NCBI GenBank assembly: GCA_034670305.1
Contig: JAXMNT010000028.1
Span: 36,106-100,105, forward strand
Direction: 5' to 3'
DNA: 64,000 bases
DNA from: Deltaproteobacteria bacterium
GTDB taxonomy: Bacteria; Myxococcota_A; Polyangia; Polyangiales; Houyiibacteriaceae
In this document: positions 1 through 17,900 of the stretch, piece after piece
How the letters are laid out: the number at the start of each line of letters is the position of its first letter
Numbering within the stretch: the stretch's first letter is position 1
Translations under genes and position numbers: made by a program
Notes under the pieces: generated by a model
What the model was told of the DNA's origin: nothing
Database searches by the model: none
What the model saw: only the letters and a program-made list of their open reading frames with translations

Positions 1-428
1 TGCTCTTGATGCGCGTCCGCGGTCGCCACGCCGGCACGCAGATCGCCGCCGAGAAGGGGCTGCACCGTTTTCTGGGTGTGCCTCCGAAGGCGGCCGGCGC
101 GCACCACATGGTCAAACTTCTCTCGATGCGCTTCGACCTCAAAGCCGACGACTGGTTGCGTGGCCCGATGCAACCGGACGCCCCCGGCGTAAGCAGCGCG
201 CTCCTGAAAGGCGGCTGCACCCGCTACACCGACGAACGTCCGGACCAGAAGCTGCCCGACGCCTACGTCGAGGTCCCGCTGGACCAATACTGGTCTCCCT
301 TCAACGCGGACGAACTCTGTCTGCGCGAACTCATCACGCTCGACATCTCTCCGAACCGGGACCGGAGCGGCCTCTGCGACGCGCCGCTCGACCGGGGGCC
401 GAAGTCGGAGTCGGAGGCGAACGCATGA
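1..428 (+). CDS. 3' end of a gene (5'-truncated by window) with a release-factor-like C-terminal domain; probably a further Clp-like AAA+/RF fusion
   Basis: LLMRVRGRHAGTQIAAEKGLHRF resembles the class-I RF motif (I-x-G-x-x-A-Y-G-x-L-x-x-E-x-G-V-H-R); its stop overlaps the next ATG (ATGA 425-428). Confidence 0.55.
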   Translation, partial: LLMRVRGRHAGTQIAAEKGLHRFLGVPPKAAGAHHMVKLLSMRFDLKADDWLRGPMQPDAPGVSSALLKGGCTRYTDERPDQKLPDAYVEVPLDQYWSPFNADELCLRELITLDISPNRDRSGLCDAPLDRGPKSESEANA

Positions 429-3400
429 ACGTCGTGCTCCACCTCTTCGAACGGAAGGCCAACGGGGTGTTGAGTTGGTCCACGGTCGGCCTCGGTCCGC
501 TGAACCAGCAGCTCACCATGCGCAGCCAAGCGAAGATGCGCGCGAAGATGACCGAGGCCGTGAAGACAGCGGTGGGCGGCGCGTCCCACCACGCGCTTCG
601 ATTGCTCGCCGGGCCCTCGCCGAAGCTGCAGCGGGTGCGGCTCGAACTCGTGCTCAAGGGCGAGCGCGGCAAACGCAAGAAGCCCGGCGTCTTTCCGATC
701 GTGTTCGACACGCGCCGGATCGGTGCCACCGAACGGGTGACCCTCGCGTACCACCCCATCCGTCAACAAGACGTCCAGGTCCTGGACCCCACCGAGTCGA
801 CCGAATCGCAGCTCAGCCGGTTCTTCTCCAAGCAGTGGGCCGAACTCGACGACGAAGCGATCACCGCGCTCGCGGGACGCAAAGGCGACCTCATTCGGGC
901 GCTTTCGATCACCGTGCGGCCGAAGTCGTTGCTCGACACGCTCGAATCCCGCCGAGGACTGTGGGCCGATCTCGAAGTCGATCCTGACCGTCGGCGCGAC
1001 GGTTCCAAGAAGTCGAAGAAGACCAAGTCCAAAGCGGCCGGCAACCCCTCCCTCCTTCAGCGCCTGGGCGCGGACCAGACCGCGCGGGCCGCCGACGAGT
1101 CCCTCGAGATCGGGCGGCCACGCGAACCACTGCGCGGACAGTTGGGTCAGCTTCTTGGCGGGCCCCGCCGGCAGAGCACGGTGATTCTCGGCGCCCCGGG
1201 CGTCGGCAAACGAACCGCGCTCCGGCACCTGGTCGCCGATCTGCTAGAACACGACGGCTACCCAAGCCACCGCAACCTCGACCGCGTCACCCACGTCTGG
1301 ACGGTGCAAGCGAGCCACCTCATCGCGGGCATGAGCTACCTCGGCGAATGGGAGAAGCGCGTCGTCGAACTCGTCGACGAAGTGCGCGGCCGACCCATCC
1401 TCGTGTGGATCGAGGATCTGCATACGCTTGGCCGCGTGGGGCGCAGCCGCGACAGCGAGCGGTGCATGGCCGACGTCTTGCGCGGCCCTGTCCAGCGCGG
1501 CGAGGTCGTGCTCGTCGGCAGCTGTACCCCGTCCCAGTGGCACCGGCTCGAAGAGGACGCGCCTGGGCTCGCCGCCGCCTTCACGACGTTGAGGCTGGAC
1601 CCGGCCACCGAACGCGAGACGCTGCAGATGATCTTGCACGAGGTTCGGGTGCTCGAATCCGAAGAGCGCTGCGTGCTCCCTCCCGCGGTCTTGCGCGGCG
1701 TCCTCGAGGAAGGCGCCATCCTCGCCGACCAGTCGCTGCCTGGACGAGCGCTCGACCTCTTGCGCTCACTCGGACGCGGACGGGTCGGCCCTGTGCACTT
1801 CGACGAGCTGGTCGGGGTGCTCGCGCAACGCACCGGTTTGCCGAGCACCATCCTCGACTGGGACGACGGCGAGTCCCGCGAGGAGGTGCTGCACGAGCTC
1901 GGCGAATCCGTGATGGGTCAACCGGACGCGCTCGAAGCTGCGGCCGATCTCATTCTCCGGATCCAGACCGGCCTGACCGATCCCAAGCGCCCCTTCGGCG
2001 CGTTCCTCTTCACCGGTCCGACGGGCACCGGCAAGACGCAGCTGGCCAAGACCATCGCGAGCGCACTCTTCGGGGTCAGCCGACTCGTGCGCTTCGACAT
2101 GGGCGAGTTCTCGGGCGCCGATGCGGTGCCGCGCCTGATGGGCGACCGCTGGAACCCGCGGGGACGGCTGACCGAAGCGATTCGCCAGCAGCCGTTCAGC
2201 GTGCTCTTGCTCGACGAGATCGAGAAAGCCCATCCGTCCGTGCTCTACCTGCTCTTGCAGCTGCTCGACGACGGTCGGCTGACGGACGCCACCGGCGAGC
2301 GCGTCGACTTCACCCGCAGCGTGGTGATCCTCACCAGCAACCTCGGCGCACGCACACGTCCCTCGCTCGGATTCAAGGACGCCAACGACGCCGCCGGCCA
2401 GGCGCGCGAGGCCACCCGGACCGCGCAGGACGTCGACAAAGCGGTGAAGGAGTTCTTTCCGCCGGAACTCTTCAACCGGATCGAGAAGGTCGTCTCCTTC
2501 AACCCGCTCAGCGAGACCACCGCGCGCGCCATCGCCGATCGAGAGCTCGCGATGTTGCTCGCACGCCGTGGCCTGCAGGAACGGAACGTCTTCGTCATTC
2601 CGCACGAGTCCGCCATCACCCACATGGCGCGCGCGGCGTTCGACTCGCGCGCCGGCGCGCGCAGCGTGAAGCGCTACCTGGAGACCCACGTCGCCTCGCT
2701 CTTGGCTGAACACCTCGCCTCGCGGGCCCGCCCGGAGATGGAGCTCATTCGCCTCTACCACGAGGGCGACGCCTACCGAATTGCCGCGAGCGCGTTGACC
2801 GAAGACGAACCGCTCGCCGGCGACTCTCCCCTGCGCCCGCTCCTCGACGCCAGCACCGCCCAACTCGCGGCGCATTTGCCCGATGCGCTGTCCCGCATCG
2901 ACGCGCTTCGTTCCGACGGTTCGTTGGCGGCGCTCTCGGACCGGCTTCAAACCCACCTCGGCAAAGCCACCTCCAGCGCTGGCGACGCAGACGCCGTCTA
3001 CTTCATCGACGTGCTGCGCAAGGAGCTCGACGAGTTCCGCGAACACCTCGAGACCTGGGCGGAGGCAGACGCAATCATTGAAGAGCGCGAGCAGTTGATC
3101 GCGGTCGAGCAGTACGACCGCAGCCCCGCGAGTGAGGGGGACCCGCCGGCGCGGGTGCGCCTGCTTCACCGCCGGTGGATGCGCCCTCCCCTGCCGCGCC
3201 ACGACCGCCGCGAGATGCTGGCCGCATTCGCCGATCTGGCGTTCCTCGAACGCGCCGTACGCTCTGGCGCTCCGCTCGGCGGGGACGCGCTCGCGAGCCA
3301 CCGGGTGCACGTCGAACTGCTTCGCGTCGGACGGGCGTACGGCGGGAACGCCTCCCTTCTCCCGACCTTGGCCACCTTCTACGCATCGTTGCGCGGCGAG

Positions 3401-3892
3401 TTCGTCTCGGCCGCGTCCTGGGGACCGAACTCCGAACTCTGCACGGGCAGCCTGTCCAAGGTCACCCAGCACCACGCAACCACCTACGTGCTGGAGCTCG
3501 CCGGCATCGACTTGCTCACGGCGTTGTCGGGTGAGACTGGGTGTCACCTGCGGGTCTCGCCCGATGGAGAGTCCGAGGTGGTCCGGGTTCAGCTGCGGCC
3601 CGCCGCGGAAGGTGGACCGGGAGCGGCGATCGAGAAGCTCCTCTCCGACCGCGAACGGTACGCCTCCGCACTCGAGCGAGGTGTGCACCCCGACGTGGAG
3701 GATCCGGACCGACTGCTCCCCGTCGTGCGGCGCATCACGGGCGACCGCCCCACCCGCCAGCCAGCGCTCGTCCAGGTCGAAGACTACCGGGTGCAGCACG
3801 CCGAGCAGGGCCGGGTCCTCAAGATCGAAGAGCTGCTCTTGCCCATGACCTGGCTCCATACGACGTGGTCCGCAGATGGGGTGCCGTCGTGA
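425..3892 (+). CDS. ClpA/ClpC-like double AAA+ ATPase with C-terminal GGQ-less release-factor-like domain
   Basis: D1 GAPGVGKR / VWIEDLH; D2 GPTGTGKT, LLLDEIEKAHP, DDGRLTD, ILTSN, FPPELFNRI, GARSVKR; SLGF loop; C-terminal LAGIDLLTALSGETGCHLRVS. Confidence 0.85.
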   Translation: MNVVLHLFERKANGVLSWSTVGLGPLNQQLTMRSQAKMRAKMTEAVKTAVGGASHHALRLLAGPSPKLQRVRLELVLKGERGKRKKPGVFPIVFDTRRIGATERVTLAYHPIRQQDVQVLDPTESTESQLSRFFSKQWAELDDEAITALAGRKGDLIRALSITVRPKSLLDTLESRRGLWADLEVDPDRRRDGSKKSKKTKSKAAGNPSLLQRLGADQTARAADESLEIGRPREPLRGQLGQLLGGPRRQSTVILGAPGVGKRTALRHLVADLLEHDGYPSHRNLDRVTHVWTVQASHLIAGMSYLGEWEKRVVELVDEVRGRPILVWIEDLHTLGRVGRSRDSERCMADVLRGPVQRGEVVLVGSCTPSQWHRLEEDAPGLAAAFTTLRLDPATERETLQMILHEVRVLESEERCVLPPAVLRGVLEEGAILADQSLPGRALDLLRSLGRGRVGPVHFDELVGVLAQRTGLPSTILDWDDGESREEVLHELGESVMGQPDALEAAADLILRIQTGLTDPKRPFGAFLFTGPTGTGKTQLAKTIASALFGVSRLVRFDMGEFSGADAVPRLMGDRWNPRGRLTEAIRQQPFSVLLLDEIEKAHPSVLYLLLQLLDDGRLTDATGERVDFTRSVVILTSNLGARTRPSLGFKDANDAAGQAREATRTAQDVDKAVKEFFPPELFNRIEKVVSFNPLSETTARAIADRELAMLLARRGLQERNVFVIPHESAITHMARAAFDSRAGARSVKRYLETHVASLLAEHLASRARPEMELIRLYHEGDAYRIAASALTEDEPLAGDSPLRPLLDASTAQLAAHLPDALSRIDALRSDGSLAALSDRLQTHLGKATSSAGDADAVYFIDVLRKELDEFREHLETWAEADAIIEEREQLIAVEQYDRSPASEGDPPARVRLLHRRWMRPPLPRHDRREMLAAFADLAFLERAVRSGAPLGGDALASHRVHVELLRVGRAYGGNASLLPTLATFYASLRGEFVSAASWGPNSELCTGSLSKVTQHHATTYVLELAGIDLLTALSGETGCHLRVSPDGESEVVRVQLRPAAEGGPGAAIEKLLSDRERYASALERGVHPDVEDPDRLLPVVRRITGDRPTRQPALVQVEDYRVQHAEQGRVLKIEELLLPMTWLHTTWSADGVPS

Positions 3893-6138
3893 CCGAGCCG
3901 AACAGCAAGAGCTCGCTGCGGGTCTACTTCATCGAACACGCGGATGGTCGCCGGACCGGGCATTTGATGCGGCGGCTGCGGACCTTCTTCGATCCCCCGG
4001 CGCCGACCGCGTACGGAGAGACCGAAGAAGAGGTGTACGGACGCATCGAAGCCGAGCTTCAGGAGCGCATCGTCCGGGGCGATGTGATCGAGCGGTACCT
4101 CTGGAACGAACACTTCGAGACCCGGACCGTGTCGCTGGAGGTCTACCCGGTCGCGATGATCGAGCAGCAACCGGTGGTCGGCGCACGGGAACTCCCACTC
4201 CGTCTGACGTACGCGTACGCCAAGACCGAGAGCGGCGCGTACCGAGTGATGCTGCCGCGCTTCGAGTGGTGGCTGGTGCTCGAGAGCCTCGACACCGCCA
4301 AACACGCGATCAGCCATGCGGTGGCCGCCGCGATGCTCGGCGCCGAACCGGCGTGGCTCTACGACTTCCGGCGCGAAGGCAACGAGTACGTCCGGGAGTG
4401 GGCGCCGCCCATGGTCCGCGACCGCAGCAAGAAGCCGGCGGCCCGCGCGCGCGAGGAACGACCCACGCTCGCGGCCGTCGCTGACGACTGGGTCGAACGC
4501 GCGTCGAAGGGCAAGCTGCCGAAGCCCGTCGGTGAGGCGCGCCTCAAGCCGCACTGGAACGCCTTCAAACGCACCCCCTACTCGGCGCTCCTCGTGGGCG
4601 GCCCCGGCGTGGGCAAGACCTGCGAGGTGCAACACCTCGCTCGGATCCTTCTTCAGGCCCGCCGCGCGAACGAGAAGGACGTGCCCGGCCTCTTCGCCAC
4701 CCGGGCCGACCGCCTCATCTCGGGCATGATCTACGTCGGCATGTGGCAGGAGCGGATGCTGAAACTCGTGGAGGAGCTTCGCCACGAGAACGAGGTCCTC
4801 TACGTCGACCGGCTCGATGGGTTGCTCCGCCCGCAGCCCGACGGCGCGTCGCTCGCGGACATGCTCGCGCCGGCACTCGCCGCGCGCGAGATCTTCTTGA
4901 TGGCGGAGTGCACCCCGGCCGAGCTGGTCGAAGCGCGCCGCTTGAACGCGTCGTTCGTCGACTTGCTCACGACCATCCACCTGCGCGAACCGCACGCGGC
5001 TTGGATGCTCCCACACCTCACCGAGTACGCGCGCCGCGGCAAGAAGTCCTTCGAACGCCGCTCGATGAAGCGCTCGCTGGAGCTTCTGGGCGCCTACCGC
5101 CGCGACCGGCGCTTCCCTGGCAAAGCGTTCCGGTTCATCGACGCGATCGAGCGGGACGACCAGACCCCGCGCGCCCTCTACCCGAACGACGTGGAGCAGG
5201 CGTTCTCTCGCCAGACCGGGTTGCCGATCGAACTCATCAGCGACAGCCACGCAGCGAGCGTCGAACACGTGGGCGCAGCCCTTCAGAAGTGGGTGATCGG
5301 GCAGGACGGCGCGTGCCTGCGCGCCGCCCGCGCCATCGCGCCCTTCAAAGCCGGACTCAACCCGCCCGATCGCCCGCTGGCCAGCTTGCTCTTCGCAGGT
5401 CCGACCGGCGTCGGCAAAACCGAGCTCGCCAAGACGATGACGCGCTACCTCTTCGGCGGCACCCACCGGCTGGTGCGCATCGACATGAGCGAGCTCAATG
5501 CCCGCGGCGCCTCGCACCGGCTCCTGGCGGCGGGCCGCGGTGTGCGAAGCCTGGCCGAGTCGGTCCGCCGGGAGCCCCTGTCGGTCGTGCTCTTCGACGA
5601 GGTCGAGAAGGCCGCCAGCGACGCGTTCGACGTCTTGCTCGGCATCCTCGGAGAGGGCCGCCTGACCGACGCGCTCGGGCGGTTCGTCGACTTCCGCATG
5701 ACGCTCATCGTGATGACGTCCAACCTCGGCGTGCGGGCCTCGGGACCGGTCGGGTTCGGTGGAGCCGCCACCGGTGAGGACTTCTTGCGCGCGGTACGGG
5801 ATCACTTCCGGCCAGAGTTCGTGGGCCGCATCGATCAGCTCGTGCCCTTCTCGCACCTCGAGCCCGAAGACGTCCGCAAGATCGTCGACCTGCAGCTGGC
5901 GCTCGTGGAAAAGCGCGAGGGCTTCGCTCGGAGAGGCATTCGCATCGAAGTCTCGGGCGACGCCCGCACCCGCCTGGCCGAGCTCGGCTACGACCGCCGC
6001 TTCGGCGCCCGCCCCCTCAAGCGCGTCATCGAAGCCCACGTCGTGACCCCGATCGCCGTCCGGCTCAGCGCCGATCCGAAACTCGCCAACACCACCCTGC
6101 ACATCGGCACGACCAGCGCGGCGGACGTCGTCGTCTGA
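3889..6138 (+). CDS. ClpA/ClpC-like double AAA+ ATPase (no RF-like tail)
   Basis: GTG start overlaps upstream stop (GTGA); GGPGVGKT; GPTGVGKT, VVLFDEVEKA, EGRLTD, FRPEFVGRID, GARPLKR; VGF loop. Confidence 0.85.
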   Translation: MTEPNSKSSLRVYFIEHADGRRTGHLMRRLRTFFDPPAPTAYGETEEEVYGRIEAELQERIVRGDVIERYLWNEHFETRTVSLEVYPVAMIEQQPVVGARELPLRLTYAYAKTESGAYRVMLPRFEWWLVLESLDTAKHAISHAVAAAMLGAEPAWLYDFRREGNEYVREWAPPMVRDRSKKPAARAREERPTLAAVADDWVERASKGKLPKPVGEARLKPHWNAFKRTPYSALLVGGPGVGKTCEVQHLARILLQARRANEKDVPGLFATRADRLISGMIYVGMWQERMLKLVEELRHENEVLYVDRLDGLLRPQPDGASLADMLAPALAAREIFLMAECTPAELVEARRLNASFVDLLTTIHLREPHAAWMLPHLTEYARRGKKSFERRSMKRSLELLGAYRRDRRFPGKAFRFIDAIERDDQTPRALYPNDVEQAFSRQTGLPIELISDSHAASVEHVGAALQKWVIGQDGACLRAARAIAPFKAGLNPPDRPLASLLFAGPTGVGKTELAKTMTRYLFGGTHRLVRIDMSELNARGASHRLLAAGRGVRSLAESVRREPLSVVLFDEVEKAASDAFDVLLGILGEGRLTDALGRFVDFRMTLIVMTSNLGVRASGPVGFGGAATGEDFLRAVRDHFRPEFVGRIDQLVPFSHLEPEDVRKIVDLQLALVEKREGFARRGIRIEVSGDARTRLAELGYDRRFGARPLKRVIEAHVVTPIAVRLSADPKLANTTLHIGTTSAADVVV

Positions 6139-6228
6139 CGCTCGCATGCACCCAGCGAGGGCCTCGTGTCGTGACCCGGGGTGAGGGTCGGATGTCGCCG
6201 CGCGATCCGATGTGGTAGACGCCCGCGC

Positions 6229-7335
6229 ATGGAACTCGTGCGCCCGGCCCTCTCCCGCGATCCCCTCAGTGGCGACACCGACTGGTTCGCCGTCGAGTAC
6301 GACCCCGAGACCCGCGAGGTCGTCATGCTCGAGCAGCGCGCCCTCCCGAGCGAGGTGAACTACCACCGCTACCGGACGGTCGACGAGATCGCCGATTCCA
6401 TCCGGGACATGGTGGTGCGCGGCGCCCCGGCGATCGGGATCGCGGCGGCCTACGGGCTCGTGCTGCTCGCTGGAAAAGAGAAGGGAGACGCACCGACCTT
6501 CCTCATGGCGAACGGGGTCGCGGGCAAACACCTCAACGCGACGCGTCCGACCGCCGTGAACCTGGCCTGGGCCATCGCCCGCATGTCCCGCAAAGCCGCG
6601 GACGTGGCCGCGCTCGATCCCGACGCGCGCTACGCGGCGATGCTGGAAGAGGCCGAGAACATCCACCGCGAAGACGTCGCCTCGTGCCGCGCGATGGGGG
6701 CCCTGGGCGCCGCCGATGTCCCTGAGGGCGCGACCATCCTCACCCACTGCAACGCGGGGGCGCTGGCGACCGGTGGCTACGGCACCGCGCTCGGCGTCAT
6801 TCGCGCCGCCCACGAGGCGGGCAAGAAGATCCGCGTGCTGGCCGACGAGACCAGGCCCTACCTGCAAGGTGCGCGGCTCACCGCGTGGGAACTCTTCGCG
6901 GACGACATCCCCGTTGAAGTCATCACCGACAACATGGCCGGGCACTTCTTCCAGAAAGGCGAGATCGACTTCGTCGTGGTCGGCTCCGACCGCATCGCCG
7001 CCAACGGAGACGTCGCCAACAAGATCGGCACCTACAGCGTGGCCGTGCTCGCCCGCGCCCACGAGGTCCCCTTCACCGTCGCCGCGCCCTGGAGCACGAT
7101 CGATCTCTCGATGCCCACCGGCGAAGGCATCCCCATCGAACAGCGCAGCCGCGAAGAGGTCGCGGTGGTGGGTCAGCGCACCCTCGTCGCCGATGGCATC
7201 CCCTGCCGACACCCTGCGTTCGATGTGACCCCGGCCCGGCTGGTCGACGCGATCTACACGGAACGCGGCGTCATCCGCCCAGCCAAGGGCGAGTCGCCCG
7301 CCTCCGTGATCGCAGAGAAGAAGGCGCAGGGATGA
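6229..7335 (+). CDS. mtnA: S-methyl-5-thioribose-1-phosphate isomerase
   Basis: [74 protein letters not shown]. Confidence 0.95.
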
Positions 7336-7856
7336 AGCTGACCGAAGCGGAGGTCCGCCACATCGCGCAGCTCGCCCGCATCCAACTCGACGACGAAGAG
7401 ATCGCCCGCACCGCATCCGAACTCACCGCCATCCTCACCCACGTCGCCGAGCTCGACCGCTTCCAAGAAGGCGCAGCTTCGCAGTCGGATTCGGCAACGG
7501 ATTCGGCATCGGCTCCAGCATCGGCTTCAGATTCGGCATCGGATTCGGCATCGGCTTCGGCTTCGGCATCGACTTCGGATTCGGATTCGGATTCGGCATC
7601 GGCTGCGGCGTCGGCGTCGGCTTCGGCATCGGAATCGGCTTCGGATTCGGCTTCGGATTCGGCTTCGGCTTCGGATTCGGCGTCGGATTCGGCATCGGAT
7701 TCGGCTTCGGCGTCGGCTTCGGCTTCGGCTTCGGATTCGGCATCGGCATCGGCATCGGCTCCGGCTCCCCCAGCAGACCCCGCCGCCCTCACCGCCGCCG
7801 CGCCCGCGTTCGTCTCCGACGGCTTCCTCTTCCCACGCGCGGTGAAATCGAAATGA
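7332..7856 (+). CDS. gatC: Asp/Glu-tRNA amidotransferase subunit C with a large internal Ser/Ala/Asp repeat
   Basis: [11 protein letters not shown]...ILTHVAEL N-terminus and AP...[10 protein letters not shown]-terminus; lies directly before gatA with 4-bp overlaps. Confidence 0.85.
7484..7765. repeat. Degenerate hexamer repeat (TCGGAT/TCGGCA/TCGGCT/TCGGCG)n inside gatC
   Basis: Directly visible tandem hexamers. Confidence 0.95.
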
Positions 7857-9220
7857 CCGACGCCATGACGGCGGCCGAGATCGTCGAAGAAGCCCAGACC
7901 GGCGACCCGTTGCGTTTCGCGATCGCCGCCCACGCGCGTCTGTCGAACACAGACACCCACCACACCACGCTCCAGATTCTCGAGCCCGAGCAGCCGCCCG
8001 CACCCGGCCCGCTGACCGGCGTCGCGATCGCGCTCAAGGACAACATCTGCCAACGCGGCACCCGCACGACCTGCGCGTCGCGCTTGCTCGAACACTGGGA
8101 AGCCCCCTACGACGCGACCGTCGCCAAGCGGCTGCGAGACGCCGGCGCGTTGCTGGTCGCCAAGACCAACATGGACGAGTTCGGCATGGGCTCTTCCACC
8201 GAGAACAGCGCGTTCGGTCCCACGACCCACCCGCTCGACGCCACTCGAGTGCCCGGCGGATCGAGCGGGGGCTCCGCCGCAATCGTCGCCGCCGCGCTCG
8301 TCCCGATCGCGCTCGGCAGCGACACTGGCGGGTCGGTGCGCCAGCCCGCGGCGTTCTGTGGCGTGTTCGGCCTCAAACCCACCTACGGGGCGGTGTCGCG
8401 CTTCGGGCTCGTCGCCTTCGGTTCCAGCCTCGACCAGATTGGGCCGCTCGCCACGACCTCGCGCGATTGCGCGCGCACCTTCGACGTGATCGCCGGACAC
8501 GACCCGGCCGACGCAACATCCGCCAAGCACGCCCACGCTTCCACCGAACAAGCGTGCGGGCGCTCGGTCGTCGGTGAGCGGATCGGTGTGCCGCGCGCGC
8601 TCCTCGAAGGCGCGAGCGACGAAGTCCTTCGCGCGTTCGACGAGGGCCTGTCCGAGCTCCGGGAGGCCGGCGCCGAGGTGGTCGACATCGAGCTGCCGAA
8701 CGCCGCGCTCTCGGTCAGCGCCTACTACGTTCTCGCCACCGCGGAGGCGTCGAGCAACCTCGCGCGCTTCGACGGCGGCCGGTACGGCCTGCGGGTCGAC
8801 GCGCCCGATCTGCAGTCGATGTACGAACGCACACGCGCGTGTTTCGGAGCCGAGGTGAAGCGGCGCATCTTGCTCGGCACCTTCGCGCTCTCGGCCGGCT
8901 ACCACGACCGGTTCTACGCCAAAGCGCAGGCGGTGCGACACGCGATCGCGGCCGACTTCGCGACGGCTTTCGCAGCGGGCTGCACCGCCGTCGCCACGCC
9001 CACGACACCCACGGTCGCGTTCGAACTGGGCAGCTACGAGGGCGACCCACTCGCGATGTACCTCTCGGACCTCTACACCCTGCCCGCGAGCCTTGCCGGA
9101 CTACCCGCCTTGAGCGCGCCCTTGCGCCGACCCCGCGGCGCGCTCCCCGCCGGGTTGCAGCTCGTTGCGCCGGCGTTTCAGGAAGCGACGCTCTTCGCAC
9201 TCGGGTCGGTGTTCGGATGA
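7853..9220 (+). CDS. gatA: Asp/Glu-tRNA amidotransferase subunit A
   Basis: KDN, KTNMDEFGMGSSTENS, PGGSSGGSAA, GSDTGGSVRQPA, FGAEVKRRILLGT. Confidence 0.95.
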   Translation: MTDAMTAAEIVEEAQTGDPLRFAIAAHARLSNTDTHHTTLQILEPEQPPAPGPLTGVAIALKDNICQRGTRTTCASRLLEHWEAPYDATVAKRLRDAGALLVAKTNMDEFGMGSSTENSAFGPTTHPLDATRVPGGSSGGSAAIVAAALVPIALGSDTGGSVRQPAAFCGVFGLKPTYGAVSRFGLVAFGSSLDQIGPLATTSRDCARTFDVIAGHDPADATSAKHAHASTEQACGRSVVGERIGVPRALLEGASDEVLRAFDEGLSELREAGAEVVDIELPNAALSVSAYYVLATAEASSNLARFDGGRYGLRVDAPDLQSMYERTRACFGAEVKRRILLGTFALSAGYHDRFYAKAQAVRHAIAADFATAFAAGCTAVATPTTPTVAFELGSYEGDPLAMYLSDLYTLPASLAGLPALSAPLRRPRGALPAGLQLVAPAFQEATLFALGSVFG

Positions 9221-10656
9221 CCGAGTTCGAAACCGTCATCGGACTCGAAGTCCACGCGCAACTCCGCACGGGCCGCAAACTCTTCTGCCGGTGCGCCACC
9301 TCGTTCGGCGCGCCGCCCAACACGCAGATCTGTCCGGTGTGTCTCGGACTGCCCGGCGCGCTCCCGGTGGTGGATCCAGCCGCGGTGGACCTCGCGATCG
9401 CGGCTGGGCTCGCGCTCGATTGCGAGGTGCGCGCCCGGAGCGTGTTCGCGCGCAAGAGCTACTTCTATCCGGACCTCGCCAAGGGCTACCAGATCACGCA
9501 GTTCGAGCGCCCCTTGCTCGAACGGGGGCACCTCCAAATCGGTGACCAGCGCACGCGCATTCTGCGCATCCACATGGAGGAGGACGCCGCGAAGAGTGGC
9601 CACTCGTCCGCGGGGACGGTGGTGGACTTCAACCGCGCGGGCGTCGCGTTGATCGAGATCGTCTCCGAACCGGATCTCAGGTCCGCCGAAGATGCCGAAG
9701 CGTACCTGCGCGCCCTGCGCGAGATCTTGCTCCACGTCGGCGCATGCGACGGCAACCTGGAAGAAGGGTCCTTCCGCTGCGACGCCAACGTTTCGGTGCG
9801 GCCCGCGGGGGATCCAGTGCTCGGGACCCGCGTCGAGCTCAAGAACATCAACTCGTTCCGATTCGTCCGACTCGCGATCGACAACGAAGCGGCGCGCCAG
9901 CGCGCCATCGTCTCGAGCGGCGGCACGGTCGTGCAGCAGACCCGCAGCTGGGACGAGGCGAAGCAGTCCACGTTCTTGATGCGCACCAAAGAAGAAGCGG
10001 AGGACTACCGCTACTTCCCCGATCCGGATCTGCCGACGCTCGTCGTCTCGCAGGGCCGCATCCGCGCCATCGAATCGACGCTGCCCGAGCGTCCTGCGGC
10101 GCGCCGCCTCCGCTGGCAGGCCACCTACGGCGTCTTGCCCGAACAATCCGAACCGCTCGGCGCCCATCCCCAGGTGGCGAACTACGTCGACGAGGTCGTG
10201 TCCAAGGTGCTCGAGTCCACCGAAGACAACCACGCCGACGCGGGCCGAAGGGTGCTGCTCTTCTTGCTCGGCGAGGTGCTTCGACACATCCCACTCGACG
10301 GGGTTCACGCGCGCTTCGCGGTGGACGCTGAGCGCCTGAGCGAGCTGCTCGTGCTGGTCGAGCGAGGCACCATTCACGTCGGCGTCGCCAAGGACGTGTT
10401 TCAGCGACTCCTCGAGACCGACGCGCGGCCAGCAGACATCGTCGAAGCCGAAGGTCTCGCACAGCTCACGGACGCGAACGCCATCGCGGACGTCGTCGCG
10501 AAGATCGTCGCCGATCATCCCGCGCAGCTGGCGCAATACCGGGCGGGCAAGACCAAGGTGTTCGGCTTCTTCGTCGGCCAGGTGATGAAGGCCACCCGCG
10601 GGCGGGCAAACCCGGCCCAGGTGCAGGCCGCGGTGCGCGCCGCGCTCGACTCATAG
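9217..10656 (+). CDS. gatB: Asp/Glu-tRNA amidotransferase subunit B
   Basis: IGLEVHAQL, RKSYFYPDLAKGYQITQ, HMEEDAAK, RCDANVS, DYRYFPDPDLP, GQVMKATRG. Confidence 0.95.
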   Translation: MTEFETVIGLEVHAQLRTGRKLFCRCATSFGAPPNTQICPVCLGLPGALPVVDPAAVDLAIAAGLALDCEVRARSVFARKSYFYPDLAKGYQITQFERPLLERGHLQIGDQRTRILRIHMEEDAAKSGHSSAGTVVDFNRAGVALIEIVSEPDLRSAEDAEAYLRALREILLHVGACDGNLEEGSFRCDANVSVRPAGDPVLGTRVELKNINSFRFVRLAIDNEAARQRAIVSSGGTVVQQTRSWDEAKQSTFLMRTKEEAEDYRYFPDPDLPTLVVSQGRIRAIESTLPERPAARRLRWQATYGVLPEQSEPLGAHPQVANYVDEVVSKVLESTEDNHADAGRRVLLFLLGEVLRHIPLDGVHARFAVDAERLSELLVLVERGTIHVGVAKDVFQRLLETDARPADIVEAEGLAQLTDANAIADVVAKIVADHPAQLAQYRAGKTKVFGFFVGQVMKATRGRANPAQVQAAVRAALDS

Positions 10657-10739
10657 TCGCGCATCTCCGGGCGCGGCGTCGCGCGCTCAGAAACAGAAGC
10701 TCGACGCGTGGTCGCGCATCTCCGCTTCGTCGGGTGCGC

Positions 10740-11894
10740 TCAGAAGCAGAAGCCGACGCAGGAGCCGCCGGGGAAACAAGCGCAGGGTCCAGCGGGCGCA
10801 CACGCGCTCGACGACCCGCACATGCAGTTCCCAGACGTGCACCGATCGGTCGAGTCGCCGTCGCACGCGCGGCCACACGCGCCGCAGTGGTCGAAGTTGT
10901 TGGTGGTGTTGGTGCAGAGCGTGCCGCAGCACGCCTCAGACGCCGCGCAGGTTCGACCGCACGCGCCGCAGTGCTCGACGTTGTTCTCGACCGTCACACA
11001 GCTTCCCCCGCAGCAGCGCTGCGTGCCCAGGCATGCGACGCCTGCGCCGCACCGGCAGACGCCAGCCACGCAACTCTCGCCCGCCGCACAGGCAGGCTCG
11101 CAAGGAACGTCGGTGGTGCACGTGCCCGCCAAGCAGACCTCTTCGCCGCTGCAGGTCACGCCGCATGCCCCGCAGTTCGCGGAGTCGGCGGACGTATCGA
11201 GGCACGCGCCGTCGCAGCAAGACTGTCCGGTGGTGCATGCCGCGCCCGCGCCGCACATGCAGGTGCGCGTGGTGGCTTCACAGGTCTCGCCATCGGCGCA
11301 CGCAGGGTCGCAGGGAGGAATCACGCACGCGCCGGCCTCGCACACCTGACCCACCTCGCAGGCGCGCCCGCAGGTGCCGCAGTTGAGCGCGTCGGTCATG
11401 ATCTCTTGGCAGCCGTCTTCGCAGCAGACGCTTCCGTCCACGCACTGAGGATCTTCGCCGCAGCGGCACTGGCCCGAAGCGCAGGTCGTGCCGCGCGTGC
11501 CGCACATGCGACCGCACGCGCCACAGTGAACCGGGTCCGTCGGCAAGCTCGCGCACACGCCATCGCAACACGACTGGCCACTCGGACACGGCGTGTCCGG
11601 TCCGCATCCCGGATCGACACACGTGCCGAGCCGACAGATCTGTTCGCCCACACAGTCGGGCACACACGCGAAGCCGGTGTCGGCCGCGTCCACACCCGGG
11701 ACATCTTCGGGCACACCCATGTCGGGGGTGCCTGTGTCGGTGCGCGCGGCGTCGACGCGGGTTCCGCTGTCTTCGCGAATGGTGCCGGACGCACAGCCAA
11801 GCGCGAACAGCCCAGTGGCCAGGACCCCCACGACCCCCAGAAAAGAGGCCGAAGCCAGCGCAGTGGAAGGTGGGCGAGTGGAAAGAGAAGTCAT
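10740..11894 (-). CDS. Cys-rich secreted lipoprotein with repeated D-x-x-[NH]-C-G-x-C-G-x-x-C units
   Basis: Lipobox ALGC; five repeats such as DPVHCGACGRMC, DALNCGTCGRAC, DSANCGACGVTC. Confidence 0.8.
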   Translation of the reverse strand: MTSLSTRPPSTALASASFLGVVGVLATGLFALGCASGTIREDSGTRVDAARTDTGTPDMGVPEDVPGVDAADTGFACVPDCVGEQICRLGTCVDPGCGPDTPCPSGQSCCDGVCASLPTDPVHCGACGRMCGTRGTTCASGQCRCGEDPQCVDGSVCCEDGCQEIMTDALNCGTCGRACEVGQVCEAGACVIPPCDPACADGETCEATTRTCMCGAGAACTTGQSCCDGACLDTSADSANCGACGVTCSGEEVCLAGTCTTDVPCEPACAAGESCVAGVCRCGAGVACLGTQRCCGGSCVTVENNVEHCGACGRTCAASEACCGTLCTNTTNNFDHCGACGRACDGDSTDRCTSGNCMCGSSSACAPAGPCACFPGGSCVGFCF

Positions 11895-12058
11895 GGCGTC
11901 CGAAGTGTGCAGGAAGGGTACGGGGCGCGCCTGTCAGTTGCTGCGACATTCCGCACGAACCTCATGTTTCTGAGATGCTCCGGAGCGCGAACGCTGCTCA
12001 CCCGGCATTGACGTGTGGGTGAAACCCCGGCATCTTCCGTTCTAGGTAAACCTTTCCA

Positions 12059-13093
12059 GTGACCGATTCCGACGACGAGGCGCTCCGAGAGGGCGCAGCG
12101 CACGACATCCGCAACGTGCTCGCGACCATCGCGGGCTGGGCGGACCTCGCTCGCGCGAAGCAAGTCCCGATCGAAGAAGCGTTGGCCGCGATCCAAGCCG
12201 CCGCCCTCACGGGCCAGCGCACCGCCGACGTGCTGATGGGTGCGGCCACCGACGAGCCGGACGTCTGCGACCTCGGAGCGGTGGCGGAGGACGTCGTTCG
12301 GCTGCTCGGTCCCACCGCCCGCGCCAAGAAGGTGCAGCTCCAAGTCCGTTCCACGTTTGGTCCCGTCTACGCTGCGCTTGGCCGCACCGACGCGACCCGC
12401 ATCGCGTGGAACCTGGCGCTCAATGCGATTCAGGTCCTCCGAACCGGCGAGCAGGTCACTCTGGTGGTCGAAAGCACCTCGCAGACGGGTTCGCTCCGGG
12501 TCGAGGACAACGGACCGGGCATGGACCGGCAGACCCAGGCCCGCGTTCTGCAGCACCGCCAGAGCGAACGCCCCGGCGGTCGCGGCATCGGCCTCTCGGC
12601 GGTGCGCCAACTGGTCAAGGCAGCGGGCGGCACGGTGAGTCTGGACTCTGCGCCTGGACGTGGGACCTCGTTTCGCATCGACCTCCCACTCGGAACGCCC
12701 GCGCGTCGAAGCTCGGCGAGCGGCGTGACCCGCGCGGTGCAATCGGTGCTCGTCGTCGAGGACGACGCCGGTGTGCGCGAGCTCGTGTGCACCACCCTCG
12801 CGCTTCGCGACCTCAACGTCGTCGCGGTGGGTTCGGCTTCGGAAGCCGCCAAGATGGAAGGTTCGTTCGACGTCGCCCTCGTCGATCTCACCCTCGGAGA
12901 CGGCTCGGGCGACGACGTGATCGCCGACCTTCGTGCCCGGCGGGTCGCGCAACGATGCGTGCTGATGAGTGGCATGCCGTCGAGCCCGACGCCGACCTTA
13001 GACGGCCGGCCGGATCACTGGCTCCGAAAGCCATTCGACTCCCGCCAACTGTTGGACGCCCTGGGCGTGGCCGCGGTCGAAGCCGCCGTCTGA
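12059..13093 (+). CDS. Cytoplasmic hybrid histidine kinase/receiver protein
   Basis: HDIRNVL, NLALNA, DNGPG, GIGL, GRGTSF; receiver VLVVEDD...LVDL...KPF. Confidence 0.85.
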   Translation: MTDSDDEALREGAAHDIRNVLATIAGWADLARAKQVPIEEALAAIQAAALTGQRTADVLMGAATDEPDVCDLGAVAEDVVRLLGPTARAKKVQLQVRSTFGPVYAALGRTDATRIAWNLALNAIQVLRTGEQVTLVVESTSQTGSLRVEDNGPGMDRQTQARVLQHRQSERPGGRGIGLSAVRQLVKAAGGTVSLDSAPGRGTSFRIDLPLGTPARRSSASGVTRAVQSVLVVEDDAGVRELVCTTLALRDLNVVAVGSASEAAKMEGSFDVALVDLTLGDGSGDDVIADLRARRVAQRCVLMSGMPSSPTPTLDGRPDHWLRKPFDSRQLLDALGVAAVEAAV

Positions 13094-13219
13094 CCTCTCC
13101 GCCGTGCGCCCCCGAACTTCCGGGGTGGTCCCCCGGAAACGACCTGGTATCGTCGAACCCGTGCACTGCGACTCCCACAGCCAGCACTGCGATTCCCGAA
13201 GCCAGCACCGCTGCATCCC

Positions 13220-14659
13220 ATGGCTTCGCCTCCCGCTGGAGCCGGCCGCGTGAAGGAACGTTCGGGGTGGACCACCGCCAGCGTGGAGGCGGTGCCGCGG
13301 TTGGATGGGGACAGCGACCCGACACCGGGTCTCGTACTGGTGTACTCCCGGCTGCACGAACACCTGCCCGCGGCGCTCCCGTTCACCGGCGCGTTGACGA
13401 CGCTCGGGCGAGAATCCGACAACACATTGTCGATCCCGGAAGCGGCGGTCAGCCGACACCACGCACGGGTCGAGATGCGCGGAGACCGGTACTGGATCGT
13501 CGATCAGGGATCGACGAACGGGACCGTGATCAATGGAACCAAAGTTCCTGAGCACTGTCTCCGAGAACACGACATCGTGCGCGTCGGTGACACAATCTTT
13601 CGACACGTCGAGCGTGGCGTCTACGGGTATGGCGCGTACCGGCTCGATGGCACCACCGTCGACACCGCCCGCCCGTTTCCCCATTCGGTAAGCGGCTCGC
13701 CGATCGTGGGTGGGCTCCAGGTCGACGCGCTGCTGGCACAACTGGAGAAGGTCGCGAACACCGCACTGTCGGTGGTCATCCACGGCGAGAGCGGCACCGG
13801 CAAAGAGTTGGTCGCGCAAGAGCTGCATCGGCTCAGCCGACGCGAGGGGCCGCTGCAGGCGATCAACTGCGCCGCCCTTCCGGCCAACCTTCTGGAAAGC
13901 GAACTGTTCGGATACCGAAAGGGTGCATTCACGGGCGCTACTTCGGACAAGCTCGGACTGATTCAGGCGGCCCACCGAGGCACGCTCTTTCTGGATGAGA
14001 TCGGGGACATGCCGCTGGACGCGCAGGCCAAACTCCTGCGGGTGCTTCAGGAGAAGAAGGTCCTCCCGATCGGCGCGACGAGTCCGATTCAAGTCGATGT
14101 GCGGGCGGTCTGTGCGACCCACCGCAACCTGGACCAGTTCGTCGCGGACGGGCGCTTCCGAGGGGACCTCCTCGCTCGACTGCGGGAGTACGCCGTGGTG
14201 TTGCCGCCCTTGCGCGAGCGCCGCGAAGATCTGTGTCGCCTGGTCGCGCATTTTCTCGAGCGCAGCGGGCACCCCAAGACGCGGCTGAGCTTTCCGTACA
14301 TGCTCGCGCTCGCCCACTACGACTGGCCCTACAACGTGCGAGAGCTCGAGAGCGCTGTGAAGCTATCGCTCGCGCTCTCGGATGGGAGCGAACTCGATCT
14401 GGTGCACTTGCCCGCGGGCATTCAGGCAGCGCTCGATCGCCACGGCGAACCGGCGCGCGACAGCATCCGCCCGCCGACTCCGTCCAAGCCGCCCGCCAAG
14501 AAACCTCGAGGGACGACCCCGACCGAAGAGGAGCTGCGTGCGCTCTTGACGGAACATCAGGGCAACATCGCGGCGGTCGGCCGGGAGCTCGGCAAGAAGC
14601 GGATGCAGATCCACCGCTGGCTCAAGCGCTACGACATCGACATCGAAGAATACCGCTAG
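13220..14659 (+). CDS. FHA-domain sigma54-dependent enhancer-binding protein
   Basis: FHA (GR, SRHHA, STNGT); [35 protein letters not shown]; Fis-type HTH. Confidence 0.92.
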
Positions 14660-14722
14660 CAGGTCGCTGAAAAGCGACCTGCGCCGTTGCCCTTGCCGTT
14701 GCCCTTGCCCGTGCCCCTGCCC
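14659..14722 (+). repeat. Perfect hairpin GCAGGTCGCT-GAAA-AGCGACCTGC followed by a (CCCTTG/CCGTTG)n tail
   Basis: 10-bp stem 14659-14682 immediately after the stop codon; related element at 63879. Confidence 0.75.
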
Positions 14723-14943
14723 GCGTCGTGGACGGCACCGATACCAACCTACCGTCAAGATCCGCACAGCCCCCTGTCCGCCGGCCGTCGCCCTTGATAT
14801 CGTTGGTCTTTTCGGGGGAACGGTTGTTGCTCTAGTCAACCGACGTGGGTGACGTACTGCCATTTCCGGGAGGGACGCTTGATGAGGTCCCCTCCACCCC
14901 CTATCTTGAGCGCCATCGACTCGGCTCCTCCGGTCCATCCCCC

Positions 14944-17900
14944 ATGGCTTCCACTACCCACGGCCGCGCGCTGCCCAGTCCCGTTTGCGTTGGACGCGAA
15001 CCGGAACTCGATCGACTGACCGAGTTCCATCGCGACGCAGAGCGCAGCGGGGAACGGCTGGTGCTCGTGGAGGGCCCTTCGGGAAGCGGCAAGTCCCGCC
15101 TGCTGGCCGAGCTCGCCCGCCGAACCCGCCTCGACGGTGGCGTCGTGCTCGAGGGCCGCTGCGATCCCGGCCGTGCGTTCGGTGCATTTGCCACCATCGT
15201 CGAACGGGCGCTTCGCTTTCTCGACGACATGAGCGTCACGACCACCGTCGACCTGCGCGACCTCGCGTGCTCGAGTGGCTGCCACCGGTTCTGGCATCAG
15301 CACGTCCAAGAGGCGGGCAACCGTCTGGACGAAGACACCCGAGAAGCGAAAGAGCGCAGGCTCCGCTTCTTCGATGCGGTGCGCGGTGTGCTCCGCGATG
15401 TCTCTCGCGTCCGTGCGCCACTGGTGCTGTTGCACGACCTCGAGCGAAGCGACGAAGCCACGCTTCAGCTCCTCCGCTTCCTCTTCGCCGGTGCAGGACC
15501 CTGGACCGACGGCGTCGACCCGGGCCAGTCGATGCACGCGCTCGTGCTCGCGAGCGTGGGCCCCGGTGAGAGCCGCCTGAACACACTCCGCGACCAAGAC
15601 ACCACGACCGTGATGAAGGTCGGGAAACTCGACGCCGACGGAGTGCGGGCGCTCTTGCAGAGCGAGACGATGGTGCGCCGGGTGCTCGAACGCACCGGCG
15701 GACTTCCAGAGCGGATCGAACTGCTGCTCGAGGCGGACCCGCTCAGCCCGCGCCAAGCGCTGACGCGTCGACTCGACGTGCTCTCGGACGGAGCGCGGGC
15801 GCTGCTCGAAGCCCTCTCGGTGTTGGAGCATCCGTCGGACCTGGAGCTCGTCGGCAAGGTGGCCGCGGTGGACATCTCGCCGGCAGACCGACAGGCCATC
15901 GCGCAGTCGGGGCTCGTCGACCAGACCGTGCTCGACGGCAAGATCCTCTTCGCGTTCAACCGCGAAAGCCAGCGGGCGCTCGCCTACGAGAGCATGCCCG
16001 AAGCGCGGCGCCGCGAGATGCACCGCACCTGCGCCAAACTCTTCGTGGACGAACACCGACGCGAACAAGCCGCGCGCCACGCGCTCGATGCGGGCGACTT
16101 CGAACAAGCCGTGCCGATGTCGCTCGAGGACGCGCAGGCACTCGCCGCCCGCCACGCCCACGCCGAGGCCGCCGCGCTGCTCGAGCGGGTGCTGGAACGC
16201 GCCCCGGCCGAGGCGATTCCGCCCGAACTGCGCGAGTACCTCTCCGAACTCTACCGAGTGGTCGGTGAGTACAAGAACGCCCTCACCCACGCGGAAGTGC
16301 TGCGGGATCAATTTCCGCGAGACGCCATGGCGGCCCACCGGGTCGGCCGGCTGCTCACGCTCTCCGGTCAGCTCGACGAGGCCGCCAAGTCTTTGCGCGC
16401 CGCCCACGAACTCGCGGTGCGGGTCGAGGTTCGGGTCCTGGTCGAAACGGCGCTTGCCGAACTCGACTACCAACGCGGCCGTTTCGACGACGCCGCGAAC
16501 TGGGCCAACCAAGCACTCGAGGCCAAGCTCGAAGCCGAAGAACTGCCGCTGATGATCCACGCCCGCAACACGCTGGGCAAAGTGGCACTCGCGCGAAAAG
16601 AAGCCGCGAGCGCATCGGTCTTCTTCGAAGCGAACCGCCTCGCCGCGGAGGCTGCCGGCCTCGGCCACGAAGAAGCCCAGGCGCGCACGAACTTGGGCGT
16701 GGCACGGATGCGGGAGCAGCGTCTCGACGAAGCCCGGGAATGCTTCGCGCGGGCGATCGAAGTGGCCGCCGCGGTCAACGACTCGCGCGACTTGGCGATC
16801 GCCACCGAGAACCTCGCGGTCCTGGCCCACCTGCGCCGGAACTACAAAGAGGCCCTCGACAGCTACCACGAAGCCGTCACCTTGCTGAAACGCCTCGGCA
16901 ACCGAGCGATGCTCGCGCGGGTGGGCATCAACTTGGGCGAGCTCTACCTCAGCCTTGGCGACGCCCGACGCGCCGGCGCGCTGTGCGACTTTGCCCAGCA
17001 CATCGGGGGCCAAGACCTGCCTCCCGTGCGCGCTGGTGAATGTCTGTTGCTCCGCGGCCGCGTCGAAGCGCGACGCGGGGAGATCGACCGGAGCCGGGCC
17101 AGCCTCGAAGCGGCACACGCGTCCTTCGCGAGCGTCGAATCCACCAAAGCCAGCCAGCCGCTGGTGGAGCTCGTCCGACTTTCCCTGGTCGAGGGCGACC
17201 TTCAGGCGGCACGCAAGTTCATCGCTGCGCTTCCGGAGACCGAGTCCCCGAAACAGGCAGCCGAGCTCGCCATCCTCGACGCAGACCTCGAACGAGCCGC
17301 CGGCGGCGACACGCTCTTGGTCGCCCAGCGCGCGATGGCCGCCGCTGCTCGCGCCGAAGACGATGAGCTGCGGCTCGAAGCCCTCATCCGCCTTTGCAAA
17401 GCCCAGTGCGACGCATCGGATTTGAGCGCCGCCCATACCTTGCACGAAGCGTTCGCGCTCGAGGACGCGCTCACCGCCCGCGTGCCCGACGAAGCCAAGG
17501 ACGCGTGGCGCGGCCGCCCGACCCGCCTCGAACTCTCCGAGCTCGACTCGCGAACCGCACGCCTCGGCGGACGGCGTCCCTCGCAGATCCCCACGCCGCG
17601 CACGCGCTCGGTGGAGATGGATCGCCGCTACCCGGTGATCGCCGGAACGTCGGATCGCACCGTCCACCTGCTCGAGGTGCTGGACAAGGTCGCGCCGAGC
17701 GACGCCACCGTGCTCGTCCGCGGCGAGAGCGGTACCGGCAAGGAACTCGTCGCGGACGCGCTCCACCGTCACTCCTCCCGCAGCGACCGCCCGCTGGTGA
17801 AGGTCAACTGCGCCGCCCTGGTGGAGACGCTGTTGCTCAGCGAACTCTTCGGCCACGAGCGCGGGGCGTTCACGGGTGCGAGCGCCCGCAAGAAGGGCCG

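Follow-up and report, generated by a model that had tools for sequence, protein, structure and literature searches.

Three adjoining genes, here called A, B and C, on a stretch of DNA from a Deltaproteobacteria bacterium encode ClpA/ClpC-like double AAA+ proteins, and predicted structures together with profile comparisons show the C-terminal tails of A and B, of about 360 amino acids (aa) each, to be homologous to class-I release factors (RFs), with domain 3 lost from the tails. The stretch, referred to below as the window, comprises 64,000 nucleotides (GenBank assembly GCA_034670305.1, contig JAXMNT010000028.1, positions 36,106 to 100,105; G000:C28:36106-100105 in our handles) and belongs to a 7.9-Mb assembly of 105 contigs that is 96% complete. 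The three genes lie head to tail on its plus strand, where window positions 1-6138, in a region with a G+C content of about 68%, hold the end of A followed by B and C.

Predicted structure of the tails

Residues 785-1155 of B and 771-1131 of A were modelled with AlphaFold2 without templates, from alignments containing family members only and no RF sequences (100 rows for B and 21 for A). The B model has a predicted local distance difference test (pLDDT) value of 87.5 and a predicted template modelling (pTM) score of 0.85, and the A model has values of 90.6 and 0.85, respectively. When the B tail was compared with the PDB by Foldseek, all of the matches listed down to rank 49 were RF1, RF2 or mitochondrial RF chains (best E 2.1e-6), and rank 50 was an unrelated chain with E 0.034. 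For the A tail, all of the matches listed down to rank 41 belong to the same three kinds of factor, with a best E of 5.2e-7.

Superposition with VIA-align gives the same picture, with 41 RF entries at Z 10.3-12.3 for the B tail and the next unrelated chain at Z 4.8. For the A tail, 41 RF entries reach Z 9.1-12.9, PrfH lies at 7.2-7.6, and no helical protein scores above 7.5. A scan that did not depend on Foldseek, run over 48,161 representative chains, also placed RFs in the top four positions (Z 11.3-12.1, 145-155 residues at 3.4-4.0 Å), followed by helical bundles (Z of at most 8.8) that match the helical part only. Against the closed crystal form of RF2 (1gqe), 244 residues align, with residues 28-366 of the B-tail model placed on residues 5-365 of the chain, and hence both domain 1 and the domain 2/4 body of the RFs are present in the model. 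About 100 residues of RF domain 3 find no counterpart, and 140-155 residues align across RF chain 102-366.

The models thus support the view that both tails fold like domains 1, 2 and 4 of RF1/RF2 without domain 3, the GGQ domain. An RF-core likeness of the tails and the loss of the GGQ domain had both been proposed in a preliminary description of the window, and the predicted folds bear out both proposals, and a similar motif had been noted there at the end of the upstream gene, which the window's edge truncates. A complex prediction with the A and B tails together scored 0.00, which gives no verdict either way.

Sequence relationship of the tails to release factors

Profile comparison with hhalign, using 22 RF1/RF2 sequences from related genomes as the RF set, yields a probability of 74% and E 2.7e-5 for each tail. 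The aligned spans are 175-262 of the B tail on RF 107-185 and 44-249 of the A tail on RF 6-188. The two tails match each other at 85% (E 6.8e-6) and are only about 15% identical. The 1155-aa protein translated from open reading frame (ORF) 425-3892 carries every string quoted from it in the preliminary description, in the order given there, and the profiles place LLPTLATFY on RF L.RMY, and LSGETGCH of B and AEKGLHR of A on LR.E.GVHR, in line with that description. The domain-4 pairing that had been proposed, VVRRI...VEDYR on IRTY...VTDHR, is recovered as the best local alignment; with E 0.27 it is not significant by sequence on its own, so that the domain-4 correspondence rests on the structural superposition. 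A forced global hhalign alignment was discarded, since it paired domain 4 of the tail with domain 3 of the RFs.

The core motif of the RF strand is well kept within the families. In B-type tails, E-x-G-x-H shows Glu in 81 of 91, Gly in 91 of 91 and His in 85 of 91 sequences, and in A-type tails the Glu, Gly, His and Arg are conserved in 19, 21, 18 and 19 of 21. The Pfam family PCRF (PF03462) matches the A tail at 15.7 bits, under the cut-off of 24 (E 0.013), and no other Pfam family matches this tail at E ≤10; for the B tail, nothing at all is matched at that E value. A genome-wide scan with PCRF retrieves RF1, RF2 and a third, short RF, and A and B are not among them.

Concerning the catalytic part, the RF-1 domain (PF00472) has no match in either tail and the GGQ tripeptide is absent from both. 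Within the last 400 residues of 143 family proteins, GGQ occurs somewhere in seven, at unrelated and scattered positions.

When 1.84 billion representatives were searched exhaustively with phmmer, 122 proved to carry a B-type tail at E ≤1e-3. Proteins of at least 1000 aa make up 61 of 120 B-type-tail representatives. Among the 15 short matches listed (at least 380 aa), most open inside D2, the second AAA+ module, or its small domain, and none has a distinct N-terminal domain; hence, they look like gene fragments and not like stand-alone proteins. In every case in which the N-terminus is visible, the tail is attached to a Clp core.

ATPase cores and N-terminal domains

Upstream of the tails, B and C match AAA_2 in Pfam (E 4.6e-39 and 1.7e-37, respectively) and both also match ClpB_D2-small, and the pairwise core identity among A, B and C is 31-32% (A-B 31% over 576 residues), in agreement with the Clp-type AAA+ nature that had been ascribed to the genes. 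The best curated NCBIfam families for B and C are ClpB and ClpA, at 286-318 bits versus cut-offs of 993-1232, and the equivalog cut-offs of ClpA, ClpB, ClpV, ClpK and ClpG (885-1900) are not reached, the best values being 301 bits for B and 318 for C. The closest solved relatives by sequence are ClpC (E 7e-76), then ClpB and ClpA, with ClpC and ClpA aligning across both modules.

The three cores were aligned with the genome's four other Hsp100 paralogs, two of them ClpA-like without an M-domain (on contigs C17 and C6) and two ClpB-like with an M-domain (C21 and C91), and motifs were counted over 21 A-type, 73 B-type and first 11, then 43 C-type sequences. In D1, the first AAA+ module, the Walker A Lys is retained in A, B and C. 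The D1 Walker B motif, canonically DE with the Glu as the catalytic residue, reads DD in A (17 and 18 of 21), Glu or Asp followed by Asp in B (63 and 72 of 73) and DR in C (35 and 33 of 43). At the canonical aromatic position of the D1 pore loop, A has Gly (19/21), B Tyr (43/73) and C Tyr (43/43), and a Trp is found four residues further on in 17/21, 72/73 and 43/43 sequences, respectively. In D2, Walker A and B, sensor 1 (TSN) and the GAR motif are intact in all three proteins. GYVG, the aromatic pore loop of D2, is missing from A, B and C when they are compared with ClpC and the four canonical paralogs of the genome, and an alignment gap leaves B five residues shorter than ClpC at PGYVG. As a separate observation on those paralogs, the ClpB-like gene at G000:C91:6260-8896, outside the window, reads FLPDF and not FIDE at the D1 Walker B and GYKD and not GYVG at the D2 pore loop.

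An (L/V)-G-(F/I) loop follows sensor 1, in the alignment column where the ClpA-like paralogs have VGF; the loop is absent from the ClpB-like ones. Its Gly is invariant in A (21/21), B (73/73) and C (43/43), and its Phe is present in 4/21, 66/73 and 41/43, respectively. A loop of this type is required for stable assembly with ClpP, as stated in the part of the article covered here (Jiang and Schmitz 2023, PMC10149685). Two strong ClpP genes are found elsewhere in the genome. Protein C has no tail in any of 10 loci, and all of the 43 C-type sequences end at most 23 residues past the end of the window's own C.

Each of the three proteins begins with an N-domain of 205-230 residues, in which searches of Pfam and NCBIfam find neither Clp_N nor any other family at E ≤10. 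A PDB profile search and a Pfam search over 11 members were likewise empty, and the ESM Atlas returned no usable match. Compared with each other by hhalign, the N-domain profiles match at 93% for A-C, 85% for A-B and 11%, although collinear, for B-C. A family-specific N-domain thus takes the place of Clp_N in each protein, and since the N-domains match each other, A, B and C look like duplicates of one ancestor composed of N-domain, D1 and D2.

A three-gene module with patchy distribution

The trio is a conserved, self-contained and translationally coupled module, with a patchy presence within the phylum and a probable occurrence in Prosthecobacter. Both four-base overlaps of the preliminary description, the ATGA and the GTGA that join the three genes, are found exactly where it had placed them, and a purine-rich stretch precedes each. 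The order A-B-C occurs in nine of 11 related loci, the other two being a locus cut at a contig end, which leaves B and C, and a lone B; the arrangement is not due to chance. An ATGA or GTGA is present at the stop of A in eight of nine loci and at the stop of B in nine of 10. The lone B-type gene, with N-domain and tail (a weak tail match, E 4.8e-10) and no adjoining A or C, lies at 10000-13740 on the minus strand of L024 (G280:C160) and may be a reduced or an ancestral single-gene form.

Of 401 genomes sampled from the phylum, 15 contain the B tail, or 14 of 340 if only genomes of good quality are counted; in the window's own family, it is present in one of 22 genomes besides the present one (G000). 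The source names of the relatives, where given, are generic Clp subunits from Myxococcales, Sandaracinaceae, Nannocystaceae, Polyangiales and 'Deltaproteobacteria' metagenome genomes.

When protein C was used as the query, three tandem Clp-like genes came to light in Prosthecobacter as well, including the cultured P. fluviatilis KACC 12649 (1076, 1106 and 810 aa), together with relatives in other Verrucomicrobiota, where tandem trios of the same plan also occur, and a tailed relative of 1117 aa in a Pirellulales genome. Among the strings in these tails are ...QETGLHEL... and ...VDYRSGL.... Profiles built from only two and four sequences align the first-gene tails with the A-tail profile at 76% (E 2.3e-5, 223 columns), and the second-gene tails weakly with the B tail (E 0.002) and with the RFs (E 0.0097). 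These tails are probably RF-like as well. Used as a single-sequence query, the B tail gave no match in five Verrucomicrobiota/Planctomycetota genomes, although the three-gene arrangement is present there.

Across the 11 loci, only pairs of close relatives have any flanking gene family in common, and the Prosthecobacter loci show no conserved neighbours either. The Pfam neighbours in the 11 loci are ordinary and varying, with a transposase in one. In L018 (G350:C3; 2-784 and 17431-19794), an RtcB RNA ligase gene precedes the trio by 2.3 kb and a RelA/SpoT gene follows it at a distance of 4.7 kb, a setting suggestive of translation stress that was seen in this one locus of the 11.

Gene layout and surroundings

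The features of the three genes are collected in Table 1. Gene A extends beyond the window: as a whole it occupies L002:11033-14428 (G000:C28) and encodes 1131 aa (the protein collection holds a gene call of 1130 aa), with its start 2.97 kb upstream of the window. The terminal region of the translation of ORF 3-428 contains MRVRGRHAGTQIAAEKGLHRF.

Table 1. Coordinates of the gene A, B and C features in the window and of the related Prosthecobacter trio
Feature	Position	Strand	Remarks
Gene A, 3' end	window 1-428 (ORF 3-428)	+	last 141 codons, C-terminal part of the RF-like tail
A tail E-K-G-L-H	window 51-65	+	inside the RF-like tail
ATGA overlap, stop of A/start of B	425-428	+	translational coupling
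Gene B, 1155 aa	425-3892	+	N-domain, D1, D2 and RF-like tail, in that order
B N-domain, residues ~1-230	425-1114	+	unassigned to any known family; distant homologue of the A and C N-domains
B D1 AAA+ module, residues ~231-457	1115-1795	+	Walker A GAPGVGKRT; pore loop SYLGEW; Walker B degenerate (IED for IDE)
B D2 AAA+ module and small domain, residues ~458-784	1796-2776	+	AAA_2 at 522-688, D2-small at 695-767
B L648-G649-F650, ClpP-docking-type loop	2366-2374	+	same alignment column as the ClpA-like VGF
B RF-like tail, residues 785-1155	2777-3892	+	no GGQ domain
B tail, helical part	~2834-3262	+	resembles RF domain 1
B tail, alpha/beta part	~3281-3877	+	resembles RF domains 2/4
B tail E-T-G-C-H	3533-3547	+	
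GTGA overlap, stop of B/start of C	3889-3892	+	
Gene C, 749 aa, GTG start	3889-6138	+	N-domain, D1 and D2, no tail
C N-domain	3889-4533	+	
C D2	AAA_2 5371-5838, D2-small 5857-6078	+	
C V621-G622-F623, ClpP-docking-type loop	5749-5757	+	
Tandem Clp-like trio, Prosthecobacter fluviatilis KACC 12649 and other Verrucomicrobiota	L133 (G411:C14:60000-79999) 5475-14252	-	same plan; also L134, L135, L137

A promoter and terminator scan 5' of gene A found nothing. The divergent gene upstream of A encodes an M19 membrane dipeptidase (L002:9635-10300, minus strand, E 3.3e-53), and an apparent small conserved ORF upstream of A was rejected as a wrong-frame shadow of it. Long antisense ORFs over A, B and C, such as the one at 3784-7416 on the minus strand (1210 aa), were likewise set aside as high-GC shadows.

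The neighbours of the trio in the window are mtnA (413.7 bits, cut-off 279), gatA and gatB. The preliminary description had placed the trio next to mtnA-gatCAB; these three genes are there as described, and gatC stays under its threshold (31.3 bits, cut-off 47.1). The ORF at the gatC position (7332-7853, plus strand) matches GatC over its first 44 residues and continues into a low-complexity segment rich in Ser and Asp that matches MSCRAMM repeat models, hence it is either an unusual extension of GatC or a mis-set ORF. The survey of gene neighbourhoods did not uphold a link with mtnA-gatCAB, since the association is not conserved in the other loci; the neighbourhood is thus incidental and carries no weight. 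Further along the plus strand, window 12059-18630 encodes a hybrid histidine kinase/receiver, an FHA-sigma54 activator and a 1262-aa protein that combines AAA_16/TPR (STAND-like), a sigma54 activator and HTH_8.

Comparison with known systems

The tails resemble RF1 and RF2 in having a helical domain 1 and a domain 2/4 body, in the same order, and the strand motif E-x-G-x-H(R). They differ in having neither domain 3 with its GGQ nor a conserved PxT/SPF tripeptide, and in being fused to the C-terminus of a Clp ATPase. Ordinary RF1 (contig C40) and RF2 (C4) genes are kept elsewhere in the genome.

PrfH (RF-H) and ArfB/YaeJ are also derived from RFs and have lost part of the three-part RF body, and PrfH has the decoding body in common with the tails (Z 6.9-7.8). 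In the part of the comparative study considered here, both PrfH and ArfB are described as retaining the catalytic GGQ domain and losing other parts (Burroughs and Aravind 2019, PMC6514570). The tails reverse this pattern, with GGQ gone and domains 1, 2 and 4 retained. Outside the window, the third short RF gene mentioned above (G000:C14:139850-139969, L052:1081-1767, minus strand) encodes 229 aa, in which an RF-1 domain (E 1.7e-25) is combined with no more than the final 40 positions of PCRF; the protein is without domain 1 and PrfH-like in build.

A likeness in logic only, that of an RF-shaped protein working with an ATPase, is found in the Dom34/Pelota-ABCE1 and Vms1-Cdc48 systems of archaea and eukaryotes. 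The same portion of PMC6514570 describes how an RF-shaped protein and an ATPase act on stalled ribosomes in these systems: Dom34, a paralog of eRF1, lacks catalytic activity, and Vms1, which has an RF fold, brings in the AAA+ unfoldase Cdc48. Those factors adopt the unrelated aeRF1 fold and exist as separate polypeptides, whereas in the trio an RF body of the bacterial type is joined covalently to a Clp ATPase.

With ClpA/ClpC-ClpP the trio shares two AAA+ modules, D2-small, intact D2 Walker A and B, sensor 1 and GAR, and the (L/V)GF loop. It differs by the lack of Clp_N, a degenerate D1 Walker B, the missing GYVG and the presence of three co-encoded paralogs, two of them with RF-like tails. 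ClpI of Actinomycetota likewise forms an additional, lineage-restricted class among the double-ring Clp unfoldases; its N-domain varies, and its sub-classes have or lack LGF; unlike the trio it has intact ATPase and translocation motifs and an M-domain, and neither an RF-like tail nor a three-gene arrangement is described for it in the part of the article covered here (Jiang and Schmitz 2023, PMC10149685).

No fusion of an RF to a Clp protein was found in a search of openly accessible full texts, so that an earlier note of it in subscription journals or closed supplements is possible. The portion of PMC6514570, the main comparative study of RFs, that was considered here contains no such fusion either, and 'Clp' occurs nowhere in its supplement.

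Proposed function and alternatives

The function that we tentatively put forward, by analogy and at somewhat less than an even chance, is a ribosome-directed one, in which catalytically dead RF modules steer a Clp ATPase to ribosomes. The conserved gene order, the start-stop overlaps and the shared architecture suggest that A, B and C may assemble into one mixed ring, where D2 would be the motor and D1 a nucleotide-binding scaffold. ClpP is the probable partner, as the conserved (L/V)GF loops point to it. The RF modules would serve as built-in docking devices for the ribosomal A site, the decoding centre or the factor-binding site, a role suggested by the fact that two paralogs of about 15% identity have both retained the RF shape in full (domain 1 plus domains 2/4), which would place that whole shape under selection. 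Once docked, the modules would hold the ATPase, probably along with ClpP, at ribosomes whose A site is empty or aberrant, where the machine may remodel, clear or degrade something without peptidyl-tRNA hydrolysis of its own. Lacking GGQ, the tails cannot release the peptide, and lacking the tripeptide motif they are unlikely to read stop codons.

A number of observations weigh against such a function. None of the direct searches (Pfam, NCBIfam, and phmmer against PDB sequences) recognised the tails above threshold, and a shared fold is not proof of a shared function. No tripeptide anticodon of the PxT/SPF type is conserved in the A or B families, the position in A being variable (Pro in 7, Ala in 7 and Glu in 3 of 21). 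From His to Pro the loop of B counts 19 residues versus 26 in RF1/RF2, that is, seven fewer; the loop of A keeps the RF length and a conserved His (17/21). Domain 3, which makes many of the contacts of RFs with the 50S subunit, is gone from the tails. No translation gene is found among the conserved neighbours in the 11 loci. At the aromatic position of the D2 pore loop there is no aromatic residue in A or C, and in B a Trp, Phe or Tyr in 54 of 73 sequences, followed by Pro in 69 of 73; the lack of the canonical GYVG sits badly with processive threading into ClpP. It should be noted, moreover, that the tails hang from D2, at the end that faces ClpP, a geometry that may be a problem in itself. 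The lack of canonical pore loops in D2 and the attachment of the tails at that end argue against a simple threading of nascent chains. The preliminary description had proposed a hetero-oligomeric unfoldase that docks on stalled ribosomes by a dead RF core and extracts nascent chains; its structural half is thus supported, and its functional half stays a proposal.

A more specific form of the ribosome-directed function would make the trio a bacterial counterpart of Dom34-ABCE1 and Vms1-Cdc48, with a mixed A/B/C ring that its own dead RF modules would steer into the A site. Powered by ATP and working with ClpP, the ring would clear, split or degrade ribosomes that are stalled, damaged or idle, or else the factors trapped on them. 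We consider this form less likely than not.

Several of these observations would also fit with an RF-derived fold that is reused off the ribosome, as a receptor for substrates or adaptors or as a regulatory or oligomerisation domain, the trio then being a specialised ClpP-linked protease or remodeller. RF2 binds ArfA and BrfA by beta-strand addition. The shortened decoding loop of B, the unconserved tripeptide of both tails, the absence of GGQ, the lack of a conserved translation-related neighbour and the conserved ClpP-type loops all agree with a role away from the ribosome, and the novel N-domains suggest dedicated clients. What speaks against it is that RF domain 1 and domains 2/4 were retained together in two very divergent paralogs, that the conserved motifs are those of the RF core, and that the module encodes no other partner. 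We regard off-ribosome reuse as somewhat less probable than the ribosome-directed function. The more radical alternative, in which the resemblance to RFs is a product of structure prediction or of convergence and the tails have no kinship with RFs, can draw on the sub-threshold scores with curated profiles, on the moderate hhalign probability of 74% and on the domain-4 segment, which by itself reaches only E 0.27. It is made very improbable by the fact that two independently modelled and very divergent tails both return RFs only, among the matches listed, with a large gap in Z to unrelated chains, and that neither templates nor RF sequences entered the model alignments; the profiles moreover align the same motifs in the same order, and the sole Pfam match of the A tail is PCRF.

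The trio could also be a conflict or defence module. Where phage or toxin factors attack RFs or the A site, the tails would serve as decoys or as sensors, and sensing would switch on the ATPase and, after it, ClpP-dependent proteolysis. Its patchy spread would be in line with such a role, as would a self-contained module amid varying neighbours, with related trios in another phylum. PADLOC matches the proteins with DolB (Dodola) and PDC-M37B at E 5.6e-23; these matches, however, are confined to the generic D2 AAA+ core (residues 487-641, on profile positions 132-279 of 375), and a Pfam scan of the neighbours found no extra conserved gene. Nor are there flanking defence, phage or integrase genes, apart from the one transposase, or any effector domain (nuclease, TIR or toxin) in the Pfam scan, and we consider a defence role quite improbable.

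Significance

To our knowledge, the known bacterial rescue factors (tmRNA-SmpB, ArfA with RF2, ArfB, PrfH-RtcB and RqcH) either bring in a peptidyl-tRNA hydrolase or are one, and Clp proteases act in known bacterial rescue only after release. The trio presents the opposite design: the decoding and factor-binding body of an RF is kept, the hydrolase is deleted, and what is left is joined to a Clp machine of three co-translated paralogs. The related trio of P. fluviatilis KACC 12649, a harmless bacterium in culture, makes the question of its function testable at the bench.

If the tails bind ribosomes, the trio would be the first bacterial unfoldase aimed directly at the A site, with an RF used purely as an address label, and if a mixed ring does act in the A site, it would constitute a route of ribosome quality control not known in bacteria. 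Even without ribosome binding, the trio is a clear example of an essential translation factor that has been co-opted as part of a protease or chaperone, within a Clp family that departs from the textbook rules in its D1 catalytic residue and its canonical D2 pore loop.

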